Below, piece after piece: positions 15,306-23,446 of a DNA stretch of 64,000 nt; position 1 is the first letter of the stretch; the number at the start of each line of letters is the position of its first letter. The position numbers were made by a program, and so were the translations under genes. This DNA is from an uncultured bacterium (GTDB taxonomy: Bacteria > Krumholzibacteriota > Krumholzibacteriia > Krumholzibacteriales > Krumholzibacteriaceae), in contig CBDUYR010000007.1 in NCBI GenBank assembly GCA_965371515.1, positions 1 through 64,000 of the forward strand, given 5' to 3'. Under the pieces are notes generated by a model. The model saw only the letters and a program-made list of their open reading frames with translations. It was not told the origin of the DNA and did not search any database.

Positions 15306-17681
15306 TCACCGTATTTCTTCAAATTCTGTCTTGAACTCGATCAGTGGTAAAAAGTCCTCGTCTGCTTTGGCGAGGACTTCAAGTGTCCTGTCGTAATTCT
15401 CCTTCGCTGAAATCATATCTCCACTCAGAGAATACGCTTTGCATAAGATCATCAGTAATTGTGGATCGTTCGGATTATATTTTGCGAGGTCTTGACATTC
15501 AGCAATAGCCTCATCCGCTTTGCCGACCTGGAGGAGAGCGCGAGCGTATTCTCTGCCGAAGAAGAAGAACTCGCGCGGAGAATTATTTCCTGCCTCTTTG
15601 AGAGCGTTAAGCGCACTCATGTTCCTGCCCTCGGAAAGAAGAATGAGGCCTCGGAGGTGTTCACGTCTTGAAGATTCCGTATAAATCTTTAGCTTCTCCA
15701 TGAGTGCGGTGAGTTTAATTAACTCATCTCGTGCTCTATCAACGTCATTTTCCATGGTGATGAGTTTGACTCCTCGGAGCCAGCATGCCCGGATCGATTC
15801 GGGATTCAGTTCTTCTATCCTCGACATTTCCCTGTCGAATGATTCTTTATCCTTCTGTATGAAGTATATGCGGGCCAGGTGAAGACGACCGTTGACCTGG
15901 CCCATCAAAGTAGTTTTACCGAGGTAGAGGTGAAAATGCTCGTGTGCTTCGCGCAGTCGCCCCATTTCGATGCATGTATTTCCGAGTCCCTCGTACGCAG
16001 TGAAAGGGGGATCGTCCATGGACAGGAGGGAGTAATACTGCAGGTAGGCTTCCTCGTAGTTACCAATAAAGAGATTGGCTCCCGCAATGCTTGTCACTGG
16101 ATCGGGAGAATCAGGGAATAGTTCCTGGTATTTCCTGAAGGATTTCATGGCCTTATCGAAATCTCCGGAATAGAGGAGCGCTGTTCCAGTATAGTTGTGA
16201 GCCGTTCCGTGTTTTCCGAAGAGATTCTGAGGATCGGCTTCGAAATATAGTTCAAATTGTTCGAGGGCACCCTCGTAGTCCCCGATATATTTCGAGAGGA
16301 TATAACCAATATGGATCAAAGTTGATGCCTCCGCAGGATTGTCCTCGTAGCATTCTCTGTAACGAACTACCGCTTTCTGCCAGTTGTGCTCGACTATCGC
16401 TTCGACTGCAGCGCACAGGATAAGAGCTCCCATGTCGTCTTTGCTTTTGGCGACCTTTCTGGCTCTGTCTATAAGCTCAATGGCTTTTTTCGAATCACTG
16501 CCCCAGCTGTAGTAGGCTGCCAGGGTTATCAGTGATTCGAAGTGCTCGGGATCTTCCTTGAGAGCCTGATCGATGAAAGGTATACCTTCGGGCTGATTCC
16601 CCGTGTTGTAAAGAGTCCGACCGTGTTCATACAGGATATCCGCCTTACTCTGCGATTCCGGGCTGGGAGAGTCATCAACCGCGGCGAGTTCACTGCCGAC
16701 AGAGTCAATGCTGTCCCTGTCCCCTCCGGCGATTATGTGCCTGATTATGAAAAACAGCATCACGACCGATACGGAGAGGGCCAGGGCAGAGGTCAGTTTC
16801 CAGCCGAAGATGTGTTGCTTGCCCGGAAAGAATCCTTTCCAGGTCATGGCCGTCTCGGGCTCTCCGAAGAGGATGTTGCGGACCAGTATAAGGGCGTTGC
16901 GCATCTCTTCCATCGTGCCGTATCTGTAGTCGGGTGATTTTTCAAGAGCCCTATCAACGATGGCGTTGATTTCCAGCGGTATTTCCGGGACGAATCCCAT
17001 CGCCGGTTCGTGCTTCTCGTTGACTATACTGTAGAGAACGGAAGCGTCATAGTCTCCCTCGAAAGGCCTCCGACCGGTCAGCATCTGGTACATCAGGATG
17101 CCGAGCGACCAGATGTCTGAACGATGGTCCACGTGGCCGCCACGGACCTGCTCGGGAGACATGTAGCCGAGTGTTCCTGCTCCGGCCATTGTCATGCTTA
17201 TCGTCTCAGTGCCCGATTGCTTGGCAAGACCGAAATCCATTATCTTGACCTTGCCCTTGTCGGAGACGATTACGTTTGCCGGTTTTATGTCCCTGTGGAT
17301 GATCCCCTGTTCGTGTGCGGCAAGGAGTCCGTCCGCAATCTGTATGAGGATATTCAGAGTCTTCTCGAGTTCCGGTCTCTCGTCCCTGATGAGGTCTCCG
17401 AGTGTGCTTCCCTCGCAGTAGGCCATCACGATGAAGAGTTTGTCGTCGAGTTCCTCGACCTCGTGTATCGCACAGATGTTCTGGTGGTCGAGCGAGGCTG
17501 CCGCCCTCGCTTCCTTCATGATCCGTTCCCTGGTCGAACCGTGAAGCACCGAGGTGGAGGAGAGGAACTTCAGCGCGACGATCCTGCGGAGCTTGATATC
17601 CTCCGCCCGGTAGACGACGCCCATTCCACCCTCGCCGATCTTCTCGAGGATCTTGTAGTGATAGACGGTTTCGCCAATCAT
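15306..17681 (-). CDS. Hanks-type Ser/Thr protein kinase with a TM segment and C-terminal TPR repeats
   Basis: GEGGMGVVY, VALK, HRDIKPAN, DFG, YMSPEQ, DIWSLG; hydrophobic segment near aa 300; TPR-like helical repeats. Confidence 0.93.
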   Translation of the reverse strand: MIGETVYHYKILEKIGEGGMGVVYRAEDIKLRRIVALKFLSSTSVLHGSTRERIMKEARAAASLDHQNICAIHEVEELDDKLFIVMAYCEGSTLGDLIRDERPELEKTLNILIQIADGLLAAHEQGIIHRDIKPANVIVSDKGKVKIMDFGLAKQSGTETISMTMAGAGTLGYMSPEQVRGGHVDHRSDIWSLGILMYQMLTGRRPFEGDYDASVLYSIVNEKHEPAMGFVPEIPLEINAIVDRALEKSPDYRYGTMEEMRNALILVRNILFGEPETAMTWKGFFPGKQHIFGWKLTSALALSVSVVMLFFIIRHIIAGGDRDSIDSVGSELAAVDDSPSPESQSKADILYEHGRTLYNTGNQPEGIPFIDQALKEDPEHFESLITLAAYYSWGSDSKKAIELIDRARKVAKSKDDMGALILCAAVEAIVEHNWQKAVVRYRECYEDNPAEASTLIHIGYILSKYIGDYEGALEQFELYFEADPQNLFGKHGTAHNYTGTALLYSGDFDKAMKSFRKYQELFPDSPDPVTSIAGANLFIGNYEEAYLQYYSLLSMDDPPFTAYEGLGNTCIEMGRLREAHEHFHLYLGKTTLMGQVNGRLHLARIYFIQKDKESFDREMSRIEELNPESIRACWLRGVKLITMENDVDRARDELIKLTALMEKLKIYTESSRREHLRGLILLSEGRNMSALNALKEAGNNSPREFFFFGREYARALLQVGKADEAIAECQDLAKYNPNDPQLLMILCKAYSLSGDMISAKENYDRTLEVLAKADEDFLPLIEFKTEFEEIR

Positions 17682-17747
17682 CGTTTTACGAGTCAGGTTT
17701 GAGGTTCGATTGTCTGGAGTCGTTCTATTCTGCTTGCCGCTGTCAGT

Positions 17748-17776
17748 ATGATACAGAAAAACTTACTGGAATTCAA
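17748..17776 (-). promoter_or_regulatory. Candidate sigma70 promoter for the kinase gene
   Basis: Minus strand TTGAAT, 17 nt, TATCAT. Confidence 0.45.
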
Positions 17777-17788
17777 GGAAATGCAGAC

Positions 17789-19090
17789 TCATGTCCCTGT
17801 CCGCTTGATGACGACAATCGTCATATCGTCTCTCTGCGGAGCCTTGCCGGCGTGTCTGCATGCGTCATCAATGATCGTGTCGATTATGCTCATGGCAGTG
17901 GCGTCGCGGTTTGCCGTAACGATACCGGGCAGGAGATCCTCGCCGAATTCCTCTTCATCGAGATTGATCGCCTCGCTTATCCCGTCCGAGAATATGAGGA
18001 GGGTATCACCGGCATCCAGCTTTACAGAGTCTTCCGTATATGTGACATCCTCGATAGCTCCGAGAACGAGATTACCCGTTTCGAGCCTCTCGAAAGCCCC
18101 GGATCCCCTGACGAGGAAGGGAAGGTTGTGCCCGGCGTTGCTGTATGTCACCTCGGAGCTGCCGGGATCGAGTATTCCGAGAAAGAGGGTAGAGAACCGC
18201 TCGGGATCGGTATTCCTGAACATGTGTTCGTTGGAGTGGTTCAGAATCGATTCGGGTGTGGTCAGGTCGAGGTTCTGGCCGCGGAGCGTTGCGAGCATGT
18301 TCGACATAAGCAGGGCCGCAGGCATTCCCTTGCCCGAGATGTCGCCGAGGCAGAAGAAAAGCCTGCCATCGCAAAGGCGAATGAGGTCGAAGTAATCACC
18401 ACCGACCGATTTGGCAGGAATGCTTTTCCCCGCGATGTCGTAACCCTCTATTAACGGGGCGTCCTTTGGAAGCAGGCCCATCTGGATGTTGTAGGCTATT
18501 TTCATCTCTTCCTGCATCCTCATCAGCGACTGTTCTTCCTCGTAGAGCCTTGCGTTCTCTATGACAATGGCGGACTGCGTGGAGATAATGCAGAGGAGTC
18601 GCTTATCAGCCTCGGAGAATTTGTTGCCTCCGTGTTTGTTGAACACGTTCAGGGCTCCGATTATTCTCCCCTTGAGAATGAGGGGAACGCTGAGCAGGGT
18701 GTCGATCGGATTCTCTTCTGATTCGAGGGTTCTGAACCGATCGTCGTTGTCGAGATCGTCGACTATGAGGGGCTTCTTGTTCTTAAGCATCCAGCCGGTG
18801 ATCTGCGTGTCGAGGTGGAAAGGCATGTAGCCGCTGCTCTGGTCTGCCTGCCGCATGATCGTCCTGAACTGGTTGTCCTGTCCTCCGTTCTCGAGCAGTG
18901 TGACCGTTCCCTGCACCACTTTCATGTGCTTGATGCATTTCTGTACGATCAGCTCGATAATCTTTTCAAGGGAGAGCGTGGAATTGATCGCCGTTGAGAT
19001 GTCGTTGATTATTGACAGTTCCTCAACCGCGTTCTTCAGGCGCTCGTTCTCTGTCTCGAGCTTGTTAAACCTGCTGTTTTCATCCGCCAT
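17789..19090 (-). CDS. GAF-domain SpoIIE/RsbU-type PP2C phosphatase
   Basis: GAF (LLSVPL...IGALNVFNK), then GGDYFD, GDISGKG, NAGHN, FSDGISE and DDMT. Confidence 0.92.
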   Translation of the reverse strand: MADENSRFNKLETENERLKNAVEELSIINDISTAINSTLSLEKIIELIVQKCIKHMKVVQGTVTLLENGGQDNQFRTIMRQADQSSGYMPFHLDTQITGWMLKNKKPLIVDDLDNDDRFRTLESEENPIDTLLSVPLILKGRIIGALNVFNKHGGNKFSEADKRLLCIISTQSAIVIENARLYEEEQSLMRMQEEMKIAYNIQMGLLPKDAPLIEGYDIAGKSIPAKSVGGDYFDLIRLCDGRLFFCLGDISGKGMPAALLMSNMLATLRGQNLDLTTPESILNHSNEHMFRNTDPERFSTLFLGILDPGSSEVTYSNAGHNLPFLVRGSGAFERLETGNLVLGAIEDVTYTEDSVKLDAGDTLLIFSDGISEAINLDEEEFGEDLLPGIVTANRDATAMSIIDTIIDDACRHAGKAPQRDDMTIVVIKRTGT

Positions 19091-19272
19091 GATCGTCCCC
19101 CGGTTCCGAAATATTCCGGATGTAAATGTTTCACGACACTACCTGATTGTCACAATAATGGAGCAAAGCCGTTACTTATGTAATTTTTATATTGATTAGC
19201 CGATTCGGGTCAATCAAAATCGAATGCGGGACCAACTTAACCAATCTGAAGAGAAATCGCCGGGAGACGAAT

Positions 19273-22041
19273 TTGGCATACATTCCACTTCACGTTCACA
19301 GCACGAACAGCCCCGGGATCGGGATGATGACGGTATCTGAGATCGTCGAGAGGGCAGCATTCCTGGGCATGCCTGCAATCGCGCTGACCGATCAATGGAA
19401 CACATACGGACACTTCGAGTTAGCTAAAATGGCAGCGATAAATGGGATAAAGCCCATTTTCGGCGCCGAGGTGCGGCATCTCTCACTTACGGGGCACGAC
19501 GACGCGTTTCACCTCACTCTTCTCGCGGAAGACAACACGGGCTACGCGAACCTGACCAGGCTGGTAAGCCTGCATTACGAAAAGGAAGGCCAGCCGCATG
19601 TTACTGCGGAAGAGCTCGCCGGGCTGAGCGAAGGGGTCATCGCGCTCTCCGGGTGTATACGCGGCGAGGCCAACCAGGCCGTTCTTCATGGAAATCTCGG
19701 GATGGAGAGGGAGGTGGTCGAAAGGTGTCTCGAGATATACGGGGAGAACCGATTCTATCTCGAGATAATGACCCACAATCACGAGCGCGAACAGCTTGTA
19801 CTCGACAAGATGATCCTGCTGTCGAAAAAACTCGGGATCCCGATGGTAGTGACGAACAACGACAGGTTTGTCTCGAAGGACGACGCTGTATATTACGAGG
19901 TACTGCGGATGCTGGCCGGAAATATGAGTAAGGAAGAGGATTCCGAAACGCTCCCTGAGTATTATCTCAAGAGCAGGAAGGATCTCGAACCGTATTTCTA
20001 TTTCCTCGAAGAGGCGCTCGAGGTATCGGGAGAGATCGCGGAGAGGTGCCGGGTCGATCTCATAGATGGAACGACGATCTCATTCACGGAGGATCCCAAC
20101 GAGGATGTCACTCTTTCAGAGAAATGCAACAGACGCTTCATACTCGAATTCCACACCACTGTAGATGGTGATTCGTTCGATCTGAAGAATCAGATGATGG
20201 ACGAGCTCGAGAGAGCGTCGATCGAGGAGATGTCAGGGTTTTTGCTCTTCCTGGAGAAAATTATCCGCAGATGTAAGCGGAGTGGAGAGTGGATCGAACT
20301 GGTTGGAAGCGACGTGTGCGAGAGCGTTATAGCATATCTGCTGGGAATCATACCCCTGAATCCCGCCGAGCATGGGCTAGTGTTCGAATCGTTCGGTGCG
20401 CCTGCGCCTGGAGTTCCGCCTGTCGTGGAGCTGCTCAGGTCGAAAGGGTCTCGCGACAGGCTGATGCGGGTGCTGGAAGAGCTGCTTCCAGGCTACCGGT
20501 TCCGTTTTCAGCTTCAGAGGGAGGATTCTTCATTCTCAACGCTCGTCAAGGAGCTCAGCGAAAAGTTCGAGATTGGGGAGACGCTGACAAATGAGATCGT
20601 TCAGTCGATTGCAGCCGCACGGAGGAGGGGCGGGCTGGCCGATATGCTCGAGAGCTCCGATAACCTCTCTCATATATACAACACTGACAGGACCGTGCGG
20701 AAGATCCTCCATTCAGCCACAGCACTGCAGGGACGCGTATCTCATTTTATTCACAATACATCCAAAATCGTTGTGTTACCGCCCGGGGCGGAAAGCAAAG
20801 TCGCATATGTAAGGGGAGACGGGGGCGACGAGTTCCTTATGCTCGATAGAGAAGCGATTGCTGCCCATGGAGGATGGAAGCTCGTGGTGCAGCAGTCCCA
20901 TTTCCTCTCTGCCCTGGCTGAAACGGTAGTAAGGATCAGGGGCACAGGCAAATATTGCGGATTACAGTCGGTATCCGAGAAGGACCACGAGCGGCCGGAA
21001 GAGTGGAGGCCGAAGGATCTCAACGACGTCAGCACTTTCGAGATGATATGCGAAGGGAACACTGATGGTGTCTATCTCCTCGAGAGCAGGGGGGTTCGCG
21101 ACCTTCTGACGACGATTAAGCCCCGCCTGTTCGACGACCTTGTCAACGTCATCTCGCTATACAGGCCCGCGCCTCTCGAGGGGAGGCTCTGGCAGAAGTA
21201 CGTCGAGAACGCCGATAAAAAGGGGAAGGTCTACCTCCCGCATCATTCGCTCGCCGGTCCTCTGGAGATGACACGCGGGCTGCTGCTCTACAAGGAACAG
21301 GTCAGAGAGATCCTGCTCGGGTCGGCAGGCCTGAGGGGGCAGGATGCCCTGTTCGTTGAAAGGGCGTTGGGAACAAGGGAAGCCTCGGACCTGCAGTCGG
21401 CGAGGCTGATATTCATACGCGGAGCGATGGACAGGGATATCGATGAGGAGGATGCGCAGAAGATATTCGACTACCTCCTGCACAACATCGAATTTACATT
21501 CGACAAGGTGTTCAGCTGCACGCAGGCGTATATCAGCTACAGATCCGCATTCCTCAAGGCCCACCACCCGGTAGAATATTTCTCCGCGCTGCTTGATTCG
21601 TCGGCCGACGTACGTGACAGAAAGAAGCGGTATCTCGACTATCTCGAGCTCAAGGGGCCGAAGGTGTTTCTTCCTGACGTGAATTTCAGCGGCCGTGGAT
21701 TCATCGCCGAGAACGAATCGATCAGGGCTCCGATGTCGGAGGCATGTGATATGACCGTCGAGGAGGTCGAGACGATTCTGGGCGAAAGAGAAGAAGGCGC
21801 CTACGGTTCTCTGGAGGATTTCCTGAAGAGACTAAGCGGAAGGCTCTCCATGGAGACGGCGATGAACATGGCCGATTGCGGCCTGTTTGATTCGTTCGGG
21901 GAAGGGAGAAAAGCCATGCAGGAGGAAGTGCTCGCTTTCTACGACGAGCACGCCAGGGCGGGGGAGTTCTTCCGCGCGCCAGCTGAGACTGCGAAACCTA
22001 AGAAAAAGGACGACGGCCAGATGTCCCTGTTCGATGAATGA
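19273..22041 (+). CDS. DNA polymerase III alpha (DnaE) paralog with a degenerate active site; ends at a beta-clamp motif
   Basis: TTG start MAYIPLHVHS; PHP domain; TDGVYLLES, ISLYRPAP, LKAHHPVEYF and LPDVNFS are recognisable; the catalytic PDxDxD and KxDxLG motifs are missing; C-terminus is GQMSLFDE; 922 aa. Confidence 0.88.
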   Translation: MAYIPLHVHSTNSPGIGMMTVSEIVERAAFLGMPAIALTDQWNTYGHFELAKMAAINGIKPIFGAEVRHLSLTGHDDAFHLTLLAEDNTGYANLTRLVSLHYEKEGQPHVTAEELAGLSEGVIALSGCIRGEANQAVLHGNLGMEREVVERCLEIYGENRFYLEIMTHNHEREQLVLDKMILLSKKLGIPMVVTNNDRFVSKDDAVYYEVLRMLAGNMSKEEDSETLPEYYLKSRKDLEPYFYFLEEALEVSGEIAERCRVDLIDGTTISFTEDPNEDVTLSEKCNRRFILEFHTTVDGDSFDLKNQMMDELERASIEEMSGFLLFLEKIIRRCKRSGEWIELVGSDVCESVIAYLLGIIPLNPAEHGLVFESFGAPAPGVPPVVELLRSKGSRDRLMRVLEELLPGYRFRFQLQREDSSFSTLVKELSEKFEIGETLTNEIVQSIAAARRRGGLADMLESSDNLSHIYNTDRTVRKILHSATALQGRVSHFIHNTSKIVVLPPGAESKVAYVRGDGGDEFLMLDREAIAAHGGWKLVVQQSHFLSALAETVVRIRGTGKYCGLQSVSEKDHERPEEWRPKDLNDVSTFEMICEGNTDGVYLLESRGVRDLLTTIKPRLFDDLVNVISLYRPAPLEGRLWQKYVENADKKGKVYLPHHSLAGPLEMTRGLLLYKEQVREILLGSAGLRGQDALFVERALGTREASDLQSARLIFIRGAMDRDIDEEDAQKIFDYLLHNIEFTFDKVFSCTQAYISYRSAFLKAHHPVEYFSALLDSSADVRDRKKRYLDYLELKGPKVFLPDVNFSGRGFIAENESIRAPMSEACDMTVEEVETILGEREEGAYGSLEDFLKRLSGRLSMETAMNMADCGLFDSFGEGRKAMQEEVLAFYDEHARAGEFFRAPAETAKPKKKDDGQMSLFDE

Positions 22042-22121: not shown

Positions 22122-22199
22122 GTCCCCATCGTCTAGCCAGGTCTAGGACACTGCCCTTTCACGGCGGCAACACGGGTTCGAATCCCGTTGGGGGCGCCA
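22122..22199 (+). tRNA. tRNA-Glu (TTC anticodon)
   Basis: Acceptor stem GTCCCCA/TGGGGGC, anticodon arm CTGCC-CTTTCAC-GGCGG, T-loop GGTTCGAATCC, encoded CCA. Confidence 0.96.
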
Positions 22200-22300
22200 T
22201 TTTGGTTTAAACAATGCCCAGAATTAATCTGTCCGTATTTTACTCAAAGGGAAGAGCGAGGACTATAACTGCAACTGATCTTCGGAATAGAGGTGATATT

Positions 22301-23446
22301 GTGAATCCGTACGATCTTTCTCTGGCAACAATAGAGCAACTGGTCCAGCAGCACGGAACACCTATATACATAGTAAGCAAAAAGAAACTCATAGAAAATT
22401 TCCAGCTTCTCGATAAAGCCCTGCCTGCCGTTAAAATCTACTATGCAGTGAAGGCGAATCCACATGAAGAAATCCTGGAGACCCTGGCCGGAATCGGCGC
22501 TGGTTTTGATGTCGCCTCGAAGGGCGAGATTCTGAGTGCCATCAAGGCAGGAGCACACGCCAGGGATGATCTCATCTTTGCCGACACCGTGAAGGATCCG
22601 AAACATATTGCCTTTGCGTACAGCATCGGTCTCGATGACTTTACGTACGACAACATGTCGGAGATCCAGCAGATCGCCAGACACGCACCCGGTTCATATG
22701 TCCATCTCAGGATCGCCGTTTCGAACAAGGGAAGTGTTGCGCATCTCAGCAAGAAGTTCGGGGCGCAAGTCGAAGAGGCCATTCCACTGCTGCTCGCAGC
22801 CCGTGACCAAGGTCTGCAGCCCAGGGGGGTCAGCTTTCATGTTGGCAGCCAGTGTCTCGACGTCAATCGTTACGTGGAAGCGCTTGATTCAACCAGGGTG
22901 ATTTTCGAGCAGGCCAGACAGGAAGATCTGAAACTGGAGATGATCGACATCGGCGGCGGTTTTCCAGTGAGGTATATCGATGAGAACATCAACCTGGAAA
23001 GTATGTGTAAAACGATCGTCGATCATTACAGGAATCTGTTCGGCGATGAAATCATGCTGGTTGCAGAGCCTGGCCGAAGCATAGTGGGAGATGCCGTGAT
23101 TCTTGTAACCAAGGTCATCTCAGAATCGGTACGCGATGGCAGGAACTGGTTGTATTTCGACGACGGCACCTACGGAAGTTTCCTGGATGTATTGCTGTAC
23201 AAGATGAAGTTCCCGATGAGGACCAACACATCCGGCAGGATGACGAACTATGTTCTGGCGGGCCCTACTTGTGACTGTATAGACGTTTTCTCGAGGGATG
23301 CGGAAGGTGAAATCTGTGAGGTGGAGCTTCCTGAGACACACGTCGACGACCTGCTTATCGCGGGAAGCATGGGTGCTTACACCTATTCGGAATCGACGCG
23401 GTTCAACGGCTTCGACCCGCCTAAGTTTGTGTATATCGATAATTGA
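22301..23446 (+). CDS. Fold-type III PLP-dependent ornithine/lysine decarboxylase
   Basis: YAVKAN (PLP Lys), KKFGA, FHVGSQ, DIGGGF, EPGRSI, GPTCD, GAYT; GTG at 22301 after GAGGTG. Confidence 0.9.
   Translation: MNPYDLSLATIEQLVQQHGTPIYIVSKKKLIENFQLLDKALPAVKIYYAVKANPHEEILETLAGIGAGFDVASKGEILSAIKAGAHARDDLIFADTVKDPKHIAFAYSIGLDDFTYDNMSEIQQIARHAPGSYVHLRIAVSNKGSVAHLSKKFGAQVEEAIPLLLAARDQGLQPRGVSFHVGSQCLDVNRYVEALDSTRVIFEQARQEDLKLEMIDIGGGFPVRYIDENINLESMCKTIVDHYRNLFGDEIMLVAEPGRSIVGDAVILVTKVISESVRDGRNWLYFDDGTYGSFLDVLLYKMKFPMRTNTSGRMTNYVLAGPTCDCIDVFSRDAEGEICEVELPETHVDDLLIAGSMGAYTYSESTRFNGFDPPKFVYIDN

Follow-up and report, generated by a model that had tools for sequence, protein, structure and literature searches.

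The iDnaE locus and its polymerase fold

The window analysed here is a stretch of 64,000 nucleotides (nt) from an uncultured bacterium of the Krumholzibacteriaceae (order Krumholzibacteriales; GenBank assembly GCA_965371515.1, contig CBDUYR010000007.1, positions 1 to 64,000 of the forward strand). At 19273 to 22041 it carries a gene for a 922-amino-acid (aa) paralog of DnaE, DNA polymerase III's (Pol III) alpha subunit, which we call iDnaE. An initial annotation made from the sequence alone had described an uninterrupted frame in which every polymerase motif is replaced and which ends at a beta-clamp motif. The frame is indeed open from a TTG codon at 19273 to 22041, and the locus is organized as follows:

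19192..19220, + strand: probable sigma70-type promoter TTGATT-N17-CAAAAT, inferred from ortholog conservation
19262..19267, + strand: ribosome-binding site GGGAGA ahead of the TTG start
19273..22041, + strand: iDnaE, catalytically dead DnaE paralog, 922 aa (open frame, Pfam, alignment, model)
19273..20058, + strand: PHP domain, aa 1-262, with 5/9 metal ligands
20059..20907, + strand: thumb plus palm, aa 263-545, with D401 replaced by V384 (20422), D403 by E386 (20428), D555 by V538 (20884) and R362 by G345
21004..21915, + strand: fingers plus HhH/beta-binding region, aa 578-881, with the RR/KK and KSH motifs substituted and no HhH G-x-G hairpin left
22018..22032, + strand: predicted clamp-binding motif QMSLF, aa 916-920, in a disordered tail
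22122..22199, + strand: tRNA-Glu(TTC), a conserved landmark 3' of the locus

The start at 19273 is based on the ribosome-binding site and on ortholog starts at the same position, which give no support to an upstream TTG at 19192 (949-aa version). The promoter scores under the threshold of a promoter scan; its assignment rests on conservation, the -35/-10 spacing being repeated upstream of orthologs.

iDnaE has the domain order of a C-family polymerase (PHP-palm-thumb-fingers-HhH). Pfam matches cover PHP (6-168), palm (303-492, weak at 4e-9), finger (578-720) and HhH (797-881), and the NCBIfam DnaE models cover residues 3-894, every one under its cut-off. An AlphaFold2 model built from a 44-row alignment has a mean predicted local distance difference test (pLDDT) score of 87, with disorder only at 559-576 and 895-922, and superimposes on E. 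coli alpha with a TM-score of 0.81 (Z 40.4, 874 residues aligned, root-mean-square deviation (rmsd) 4.2). Since the palm strands bearing V384-E386 and V538 are intact in this model, the register of the active site is not in doubt.

To read the active sites, we aligned E. coli DnaE, the DnaE1 and DnaE2 of this genome, 44 members of the iDnaE family and a canonical set of 74 homologs. All three catalytic aspartates (D401, D403 and D555 in E. coli) are present in 74/74 canonical rows, in agreement with the parts of a C-family survey available to us, which call them absolutely conserved and describe the prior removal of fragments without an intact active site (PMC3919608; here and below, statements from cited articles refer to the parts of each that were available). 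In iDnaE the triad reads V384, E386 and V538, and D405 is L388. The other positions in and around the site are R362=G345, R390=S373, K553=K536, R709=E696, K714=T701, H760=F747 and Y764=Q751. The motif readings of the initial annotation, with their coordinates (20416-20433 and 20878-20895), were thus right, and its view that the polymerase chemistry is lost is borne out by the absence of D401 and D555 from all 44 family members, which predicts an enzyme unable to polymerize. One qualification applies: E386 keeps an acidic residue at the D403 position, so that one of the three catalytic carboxylates persists as Glu.

The PHP site has also changed. Of the nine ligands that characterize the proofreading PHP exonuclease (HHDHEH[C/H]DH; PMC12926913), iDnaE keeps five (H7, H9, E66, H80 and C128) and has lost four: D19 (I16), H44 (Q41), D201 (N196) and H203 (R198). 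The partial loss had been noted before, without D19. Erosion extends to the motifs that contact DNA (HhH hairpin, RR/KK), and the net charge is -45, compared with a mean of -12 for DnaE1. Taken together, iDnaE is a full Pol III alpha fold without the polymerase catalytic residues, predicted neither to polymerize nor to proofread.

The C-terminal end of the protein matches its first description: the terminal QMSLFDE occupies aa 916-922, the frame stops after aa 922, and neither the OB fold (no PF01336 match in Pfam) nor the tau-binding C-terminal domain (CTD) is present. QMSLF (916-920) aligns with the internal clamp motif of E. coli DnaE (920-924). Among 2268 stop-to-stop frames of at least 300 aa in this genome, only two contain Q[LMI][SD][LFI]F within the last 45 aa, one of them iDnaE, and a clamp motif lies within the last 45 aa of 43/44 orthologs. 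The internal motifs of DnaE1 in the order read QTFLG, QGFLG or QEILG. These are off the consensus QL[SD]LF (PMC3919608), to which the iDnaE motif is near, and iDnaE should therefore compete well for the clamp pocket. The canonical dnaE expected elsewhere in the genome was found as dnaE1 (G000:C8:11733-15191), whose product has the internal motif QEILG and an intact PHP domain, in addition to a dnaE2 cassette on contig C38.

Orthologs, selection and descent

In a protein search 46 clusters matched with 37-100% identity, the named ones mostly Candidatus Krumholzibacteriota; below them came canonical DnaE proteins, none exceeding 30%. The 44-member set consists of these clusters, minus two partial ones and the self-match, plus the query. 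In a 151-genome sample of the phylum, orthologs occur in 39/39 genomes of the same order (E <=5e-132), and the best match in the other 111 genomes is 3e-94 or weaker. In a larger sample of the order, 49/52 genomes contain the dead-type weak palm match, nine of them judged from this match alone; the three misses are 61-81% complete. Across the 44 members D401 and D555 are never kept (0/44 each), D403 is Glu in 39 and Asp in five, and R362 is Gly in 44/44; two of the three aspartates and all triphosphate-binding residues are thus gone throughout.

These genes are under constraint. The ratio of nonsynonymous to synonymous substitution rates (dN/dS, Nei-Gojobori) is 0.069-0.125 for iDnaE in ten within-genus pairs and 0.076-0.140 for DnaE1 in the same genomes, with dS close to saturation in most pairs. 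All four domains of iDnaE are at or below 0.1, and six further pairs give 0.10-0.24. Beyond the genus, iDnaE diverges faster (39-50% identity versus 66-74% for DnaE1) and its dS is also higher. The DnaE1 genes of the order are intact in 21/21 fetched. We conclude from these sequence comparisons that iDnaE is no pseudogene and is maintained by purifying selection, as the initial annotation supposed when it argued against simple decay.

A first impression that iDnaE is restricted to the order proved wrong, as three other families of the class hold more diverged dead orthologs: f5 (5/7 genomes at E <1e-240, plus a sixth partial copy), f7 (17/23 genomes) and f9 (11/12). D401 is missing in all 33 of these loci. 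The OB fold is kept in f7 and in part of f9. Outside the order most PHP metal ligands are gone. All four dead groups share a single change at a functional site, H203 to Arg (R198, an Arg plug), and all of them keep the Gln of the clamp motif. Metagenomic f5-type sequences include intermediates: P0123 keeps all three aspartates, and P0127 and P0128 have D401E with the OB fold retained. In 5/5 f5 loci (L162-L166) a conserved leader of about 110 nt that resembles a structured RNA lies between the promoter and the start of the dead dnaE.

A still shorter protein is found in family f8, where 9/9 genomes encode a 460-aa mini form without a Pfam match. It comprises PHP, palm and a QLxLGL clamp motif and is devoid of fingers, HhH and OB. 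Compared by hhalign with the pooled dead alignment, it gives E 1.2e-5 at a probability of 81%, against 0.21 for a reversed control and 0.031 for canonical DnaE; with the order alignment alone E is 0.033. The top Foldseek matches of its model are only C-family polymerases (E 4e-9 to DnaE), and residues 9-420 align with 6-627 of the Taq enzyme (Z 9.7, rmsd 19), although this AlphaFold2 model has a pLDDT of 62 and wrong inter-domain packing (rmsd about 20). The ESM Atlas gave no usable match. Searches with these dead-form queries did not find a dead DnaE or mini form in families f4 and f6. Dead forms outside the class were sought among the best 150 rows of a profile search: of 145 new rows, 138 have the Asp triad, and the seven without it are family members.

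The dead copies form a single clade in two trees, with support of 99.9 and 93 in the Shimodaira-Hasegawa-like approximate likelihood ratio test (SH-aLRT), and their branching, f5,(order,(f9,f7)), matches that of the DnaE1 of the class. The sister group is an Eisenbacteria clade (SH-aLRT 99) of full-length proteins with the Asp triad in 19/19, a mostly intact PHP domain, a QxELGL motif and an already altered RRAMGKK; in 3/3 genomes this is the second DnaE. This Eisenbacteria polymerase (L302, L303, L304; P0249, P0392-P0409) is an undescribed second enzyme of the DnaE1 type and has no adjoining lexA. Origin of iDnaE as a duplicate of the DnaE1 of its own class was rejected by an approximately unbiased (AU) test (p 2.3e-7), which used 34 rows and a rapidly built LG+G4 tree and is subject to long-branch and skewed-composition effects. 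Synteny points the same way as the trees. A tRNA-Glu(TTC) gene lies 3' of iDnaE here, in 20/20 order loci and in all scanned f5, f7, f9 and f8 loci, as well as 3' of the second DnaE in two of three Eisenbacteria loci (the third ends too soon). This shared landmark is independent support for a common descent of the dead series and the Eisenbacteria second DnaE. The best explanation of these sequence data is that iDnaE arose from an active second DnaE of the DnaE1 type, one that appears still intact in Eisenbacteria.

LexA linkage and neighbouring genes

In many relatives a lexA gene sits between iDnaE and tRNA-Glu. It lies directly 3' of the dead dnaE in 8/31 order, 5/5 f5, 3/11 f9 and 15/16 f7 loci (31/63 in total, counting scorable loci; three were unscorable) and 3' of the mini form in 7/7 f8 loci read, and it overlaps the iDnaE stop codon in four order loci and in 18 loci of two other families. 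Its product, LexA-A, keeps the Ala-Gly cleavage site and the Ser/Lys dyad and is distinct from the LexA-B of a lexA-iPolY-dnaE2 cassette. Apart from lexA, none of the protein neighbours at the 21 order loci compared has a link to DNA metabolism.

A palindrome, CTAWAC-N4-GTWTAG, occupies the spacer between -35 and -10 in 8/8 lexA-linked order loci with at most two mismatches, a count that is circular because the consensus was derived from these loci. At the same threshold it occurs in 2/24 other order loci (one at a contig edge, one with a lexA remnant) and in 4/3000 random windows. The consensus also fits 8/8 dinB-X-lexA promoters of family f4 with at most one mismatch and the dinB-mini-lexA promoters of f8 with 2-3 mismatches; none of 17 control dinB promoters of f6 matches at fewer than four mismatches. 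We take the palindrome to resemble the Gram-positive GAAC-N4-GTTC box. In relatives, then, a cleavable LexA is encoded in the operon and an operator-like palindrome lies between -35 and -10, as in SOS genes, which suggests that iDnaE was ancestrally co-transcribed with LexA-A, with an operator that would block its promoter and make it damage-induced. This SOS context adds to the scaffold or competitor role, by analogy with ImuB, that the initial annotation had proposed and that our results fit. In this genome the only LexA found is LexA-B, and the promoter of iDnaE has no SOS operator; lexA-A and its box have been lost here, and expression is probably constitutive or under other control.

Several neighbouring features deserve mention in their own right. 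A gene for a GAF-SpoIIE phosphatase followed by a Ser/Thr kinase-TPR gene (15306-19090, - strand) is divergent from iDnaE in 11/21 loci, and here the phosphatase stands head to head with iDnaE across a 182-nt gap. Downstream, a pyridoxal phosphate (PLP)-dependent ornithine/arginine decarboxylase gene (22214-23446, + strand) starts 15 nt past tRNA-Glu and is absent there from 20 related loci; genes 3' of this tRNA vary widely across loci, as at an insertion site. The cassette of lexA-B, an inactive PolY (HINTDDFYA) and an intact dnaE2 lies at G000:C38 17616-23568 (- strand). The motif TTCGG-TTTT-NN-TTCGG follows TTGACT in 5/7 lexA-B promoters and occurs once in this genome, at lexA-B. In f4, dinB and lexA are separated by an open frame of about 200 aa without a Pfam match, which has the motifs LCPGC and GC and, near its N terminus, a clamp-like motif (QQILPF, QTSLF) (L250:6626-7300, L255:6651-7343, L256:6706-7458).

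Proposed role and relation to known systems

We consider it very probable, from the motif and its conservation, that iDnaE is a non-catalytic ligand of the beta clamp. For the specific mechanism, occupation of the clamp, we see about even chances. In the ancestral state, LexA-A would be cleaved after DNA damage and iDnaE made. It would bind the clamp via its terminal QxSLF motif and outcompete DnaE1 in occupying the clamps left at primer ends that are stalled or gapped. An engineered E. coli alpha with D403E is dominant negative, and without its tau-binding domain it does not inhibit running forks (PMC10850973). Because iDnaE has no tau-binding domain either, it is not expected in running forks, which fits action at abandoned clamps. 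The PHP and palm surface would serve as a docking site, making iDnaE a manager of polymerase switching or of a checkpoint. As the DNA-contact motifs are eroded and the mini form dispenses with fingers, HhH and OB, the lasting function appears to reside in PHP, palm and clamp motif, and iDnaE would serve more as a platform for docking than as a protein that binds DNA.

On balance we lean slightly towards an overall scenario in which a dead, clamp-tethered, LexA-controlled DnaE1 arose in the ancestor of the class, acts, when induced by damage, as a brake on the replisome or an adaptor for polymerase switching that binds partners through a PHP/palm surface, and would represent the first natural family of dead C-family polymerases. 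As part of it, the protein would have shortened stepwise, from the active full-length form (Eisenbacteria) to a dead form with OB, a dead form without OB (here) and finally PHP, palm and clamp motif.

Several observations weigh against the proposed role at the clamp. Clamp binding, damage induction, competition and a partner are all read from sequence. No lexA adjoins iDnaE in 23/31 scorable order loci, this one included, and the promoter here holds neither operator, the best match to the LexA-A palindrome (in the promoter spacer) or to the LexA-B motif having four mismatches. In five genomes with lexA-A, the palindrome is not enriched genome-wide (21/2/4/21/9 versus 16/1/1/12/5 for a reversed control) and was not found at recA; a broad LexA-A regulon was rejected on these grounds, and the regulon looks tiny. 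iDnaE may not hold DNA at all, given the loss of the HhH hairpin and RR/KK and the charge of -45, and 922 aa under selection seem excessive for a mere clamp plug, which implies a partner. The gene is also broken in two order genomes, G086 (TGA and split) and G134 (late frameshift); in the latter DnaE1 is frameshifted too, which points to an assembly error.

A doubtful alternative is a mirror image of ImuB, in which iDnaE, a C-family protein without activity, would be the scaffold for a translesion synthesis (TLS) complex with an active Y-family polymerase (DinB) and RecA. ImuB and iPolY are precedents (PMC12926913), the mini form lies in 7/7 loci read within a dinB-mini-lexA operon headed by a related double box, and the DinB of that operon and of this genome keep their catalytic motifs intact and carry a RecA-NT-like tail. 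However, these DinBs have a clamp motif of their own, dinB does not adjoin iDnaE in the 21 order loci compared, and iDnaE is kept where no active DinB was found, in genomes 90-97% complete (G032, G079 and G106 with inactive PolY only, G075 with none). The order genome G024 (97% complete, two contigs) keeps iDnaE without a DnaE2, DinB or LexA DNA-binding match, its only PolY being UmuC-like; it encodes a UmuD/UmuC-like pair at G024:C1:612905-613725 (L314). With G032, G079 and G106, this argues that no single TLS partner is obligate. A role as adaptor of DnaQ/epsilon was rejected, as this 99.6% complete genome has no PF00929 match.

It is unlikely that iDnaE is a new clamp-tethered enzyme whose remodelled PHP site or palm cleft carries out other chemistry (phosphoesterase, or processing of nucleotides or damaged ends), even though the five remaining PHP ligands are kept in 36-43 of the 44 order orthologs and new cleft residues are fixed (E386, Q540, S542, H543, E696, T742 and Q751). 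None of the new residues is common to the other dead groups, R198 being the sole shared functional-site change, and Arg at the ninth ligand replaces metal in the inactive PHP of E. coli (PMC3666897). The clamp-tethered PHP hydrolase of the initial annotation is weakened by the same comparison, four of nine ligands being lost here and most of them in the other dead lineages. Improbable, too, is a partnership with LexA/UmuD-family proteins through PHP, tuning RecA-driven cleavage at the clamp as an SOS timer: residues 1-280 of E. coli alpha bind UmuD and slow its cleavage, but the cleavage of LexA is hardly affected by alpha (PMC3384344), and the overlap of lexA with the iDnaE stop codon and the retention of PHP even in the mini form stand against the many order loci without adjoining lexA and against G024 and G043, which lack a LexA DNA-binding domain match. 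That iDnaE is a decaying pseudogene or a still-active divergent polymerase we regard as very improbable. Its faster divergence and higher dS, the carboxylate of E386 and the intact triad of the metagenomic P0123 could be read that way; two of three aspartates and the triphosphate-binding residues are nevertheless gone in 44/44, and a dN/dS near 0.1, reading frames that stay open in almost every ortholog and an order-wide presence largely refute decay.

A dead Pol III alpha that is inherited vertically and kept by selection shows that the replicative polymerase scaffold has a non-catalytic use, mirroring ImuB in the opposite polymerase family. The graded natural deletion series would map the surfaces of Pol III alpha that matter apart from synthesis (PHP, palm and clamp motif), a natural protein would become available for testing how polymerases are switched and SOS checkpoints controlled at the clamp, and the palindrome would give an uncultured phylum a new LexA operator.

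Among known proteins, iDnaE shares domain order and fold over residues 1-895 with DnaE1 (E. coli 2HNH, T. aquaticus 2HPI, M. tuberculosis 5LEW) and differs from it in the missing catalytic triad, triphosphate-binding residues, four PHP ligands and OB/tau domains. Truncation alone is not new, since some DnaE3 and DnaE2 lack OB and CTD (PMC3919608). Like DnaE2, it is an accessory, non-essential, lexA-linked DnaE with a degraded PHP and no CTD; DnaE2, however, keeps the Asp triad and is a separate gene here, and iDnaE groups with the second DnaE1 of Eisenbacteria. No cassette of DnaE2 with ImuA/ImuB or iPolY is among its neighbours at 21 loci, the dnaE2 cassette lying apart on C38. The Glu of engineered D403E alpha occurs naturally in 39/44 order orthologs, in proteins that also lack D401, D555 and the tau-binding domain. 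Clamp-binding replication inhibitors of the SocB type occupy the hydrophobic pocket of the clamp (PMC9690074), as iDnaE would; unlike them, it is large, polymerase-derived and vertically inherited at a core locus without an antitoxin neighbour.

The available text of PMC12926913, a study of complete reference genomes in which very divergent or truncated sequences had been dropped before tree building, describes inactive groups for the Y family and none for the C-family polymerase site; a term search of its supplement for an inactive C-family group gave no match, nor did we find such a group described in the literature searched (subscription literature outside coverage). iDnaE is thus a pseudo-polymerase, a known theme, in a family where we found none described. 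The closest parallel is to ImuB and iPolY, the dead Y-family subunits of LexA-regulated mutasomes. iDnaE shares with them a dead polymerase fold with a clamp motif, under purifying selection and, in relatives, in a putatively LexA-controlled cassette, but it is C-family, its operon has neither ImuA nor DnaE2 and ends with lexA, and the lexA-iPolY-dnaE2 cassette exists separately, under another operator, in the same genomes. As far as sequence can tell, iDnaE is C-family by fold and descent, belongs as an enzyme to none of DnaE1, DnaE2 and DnaE3, and would work in the manner of ImuB and iPolY.

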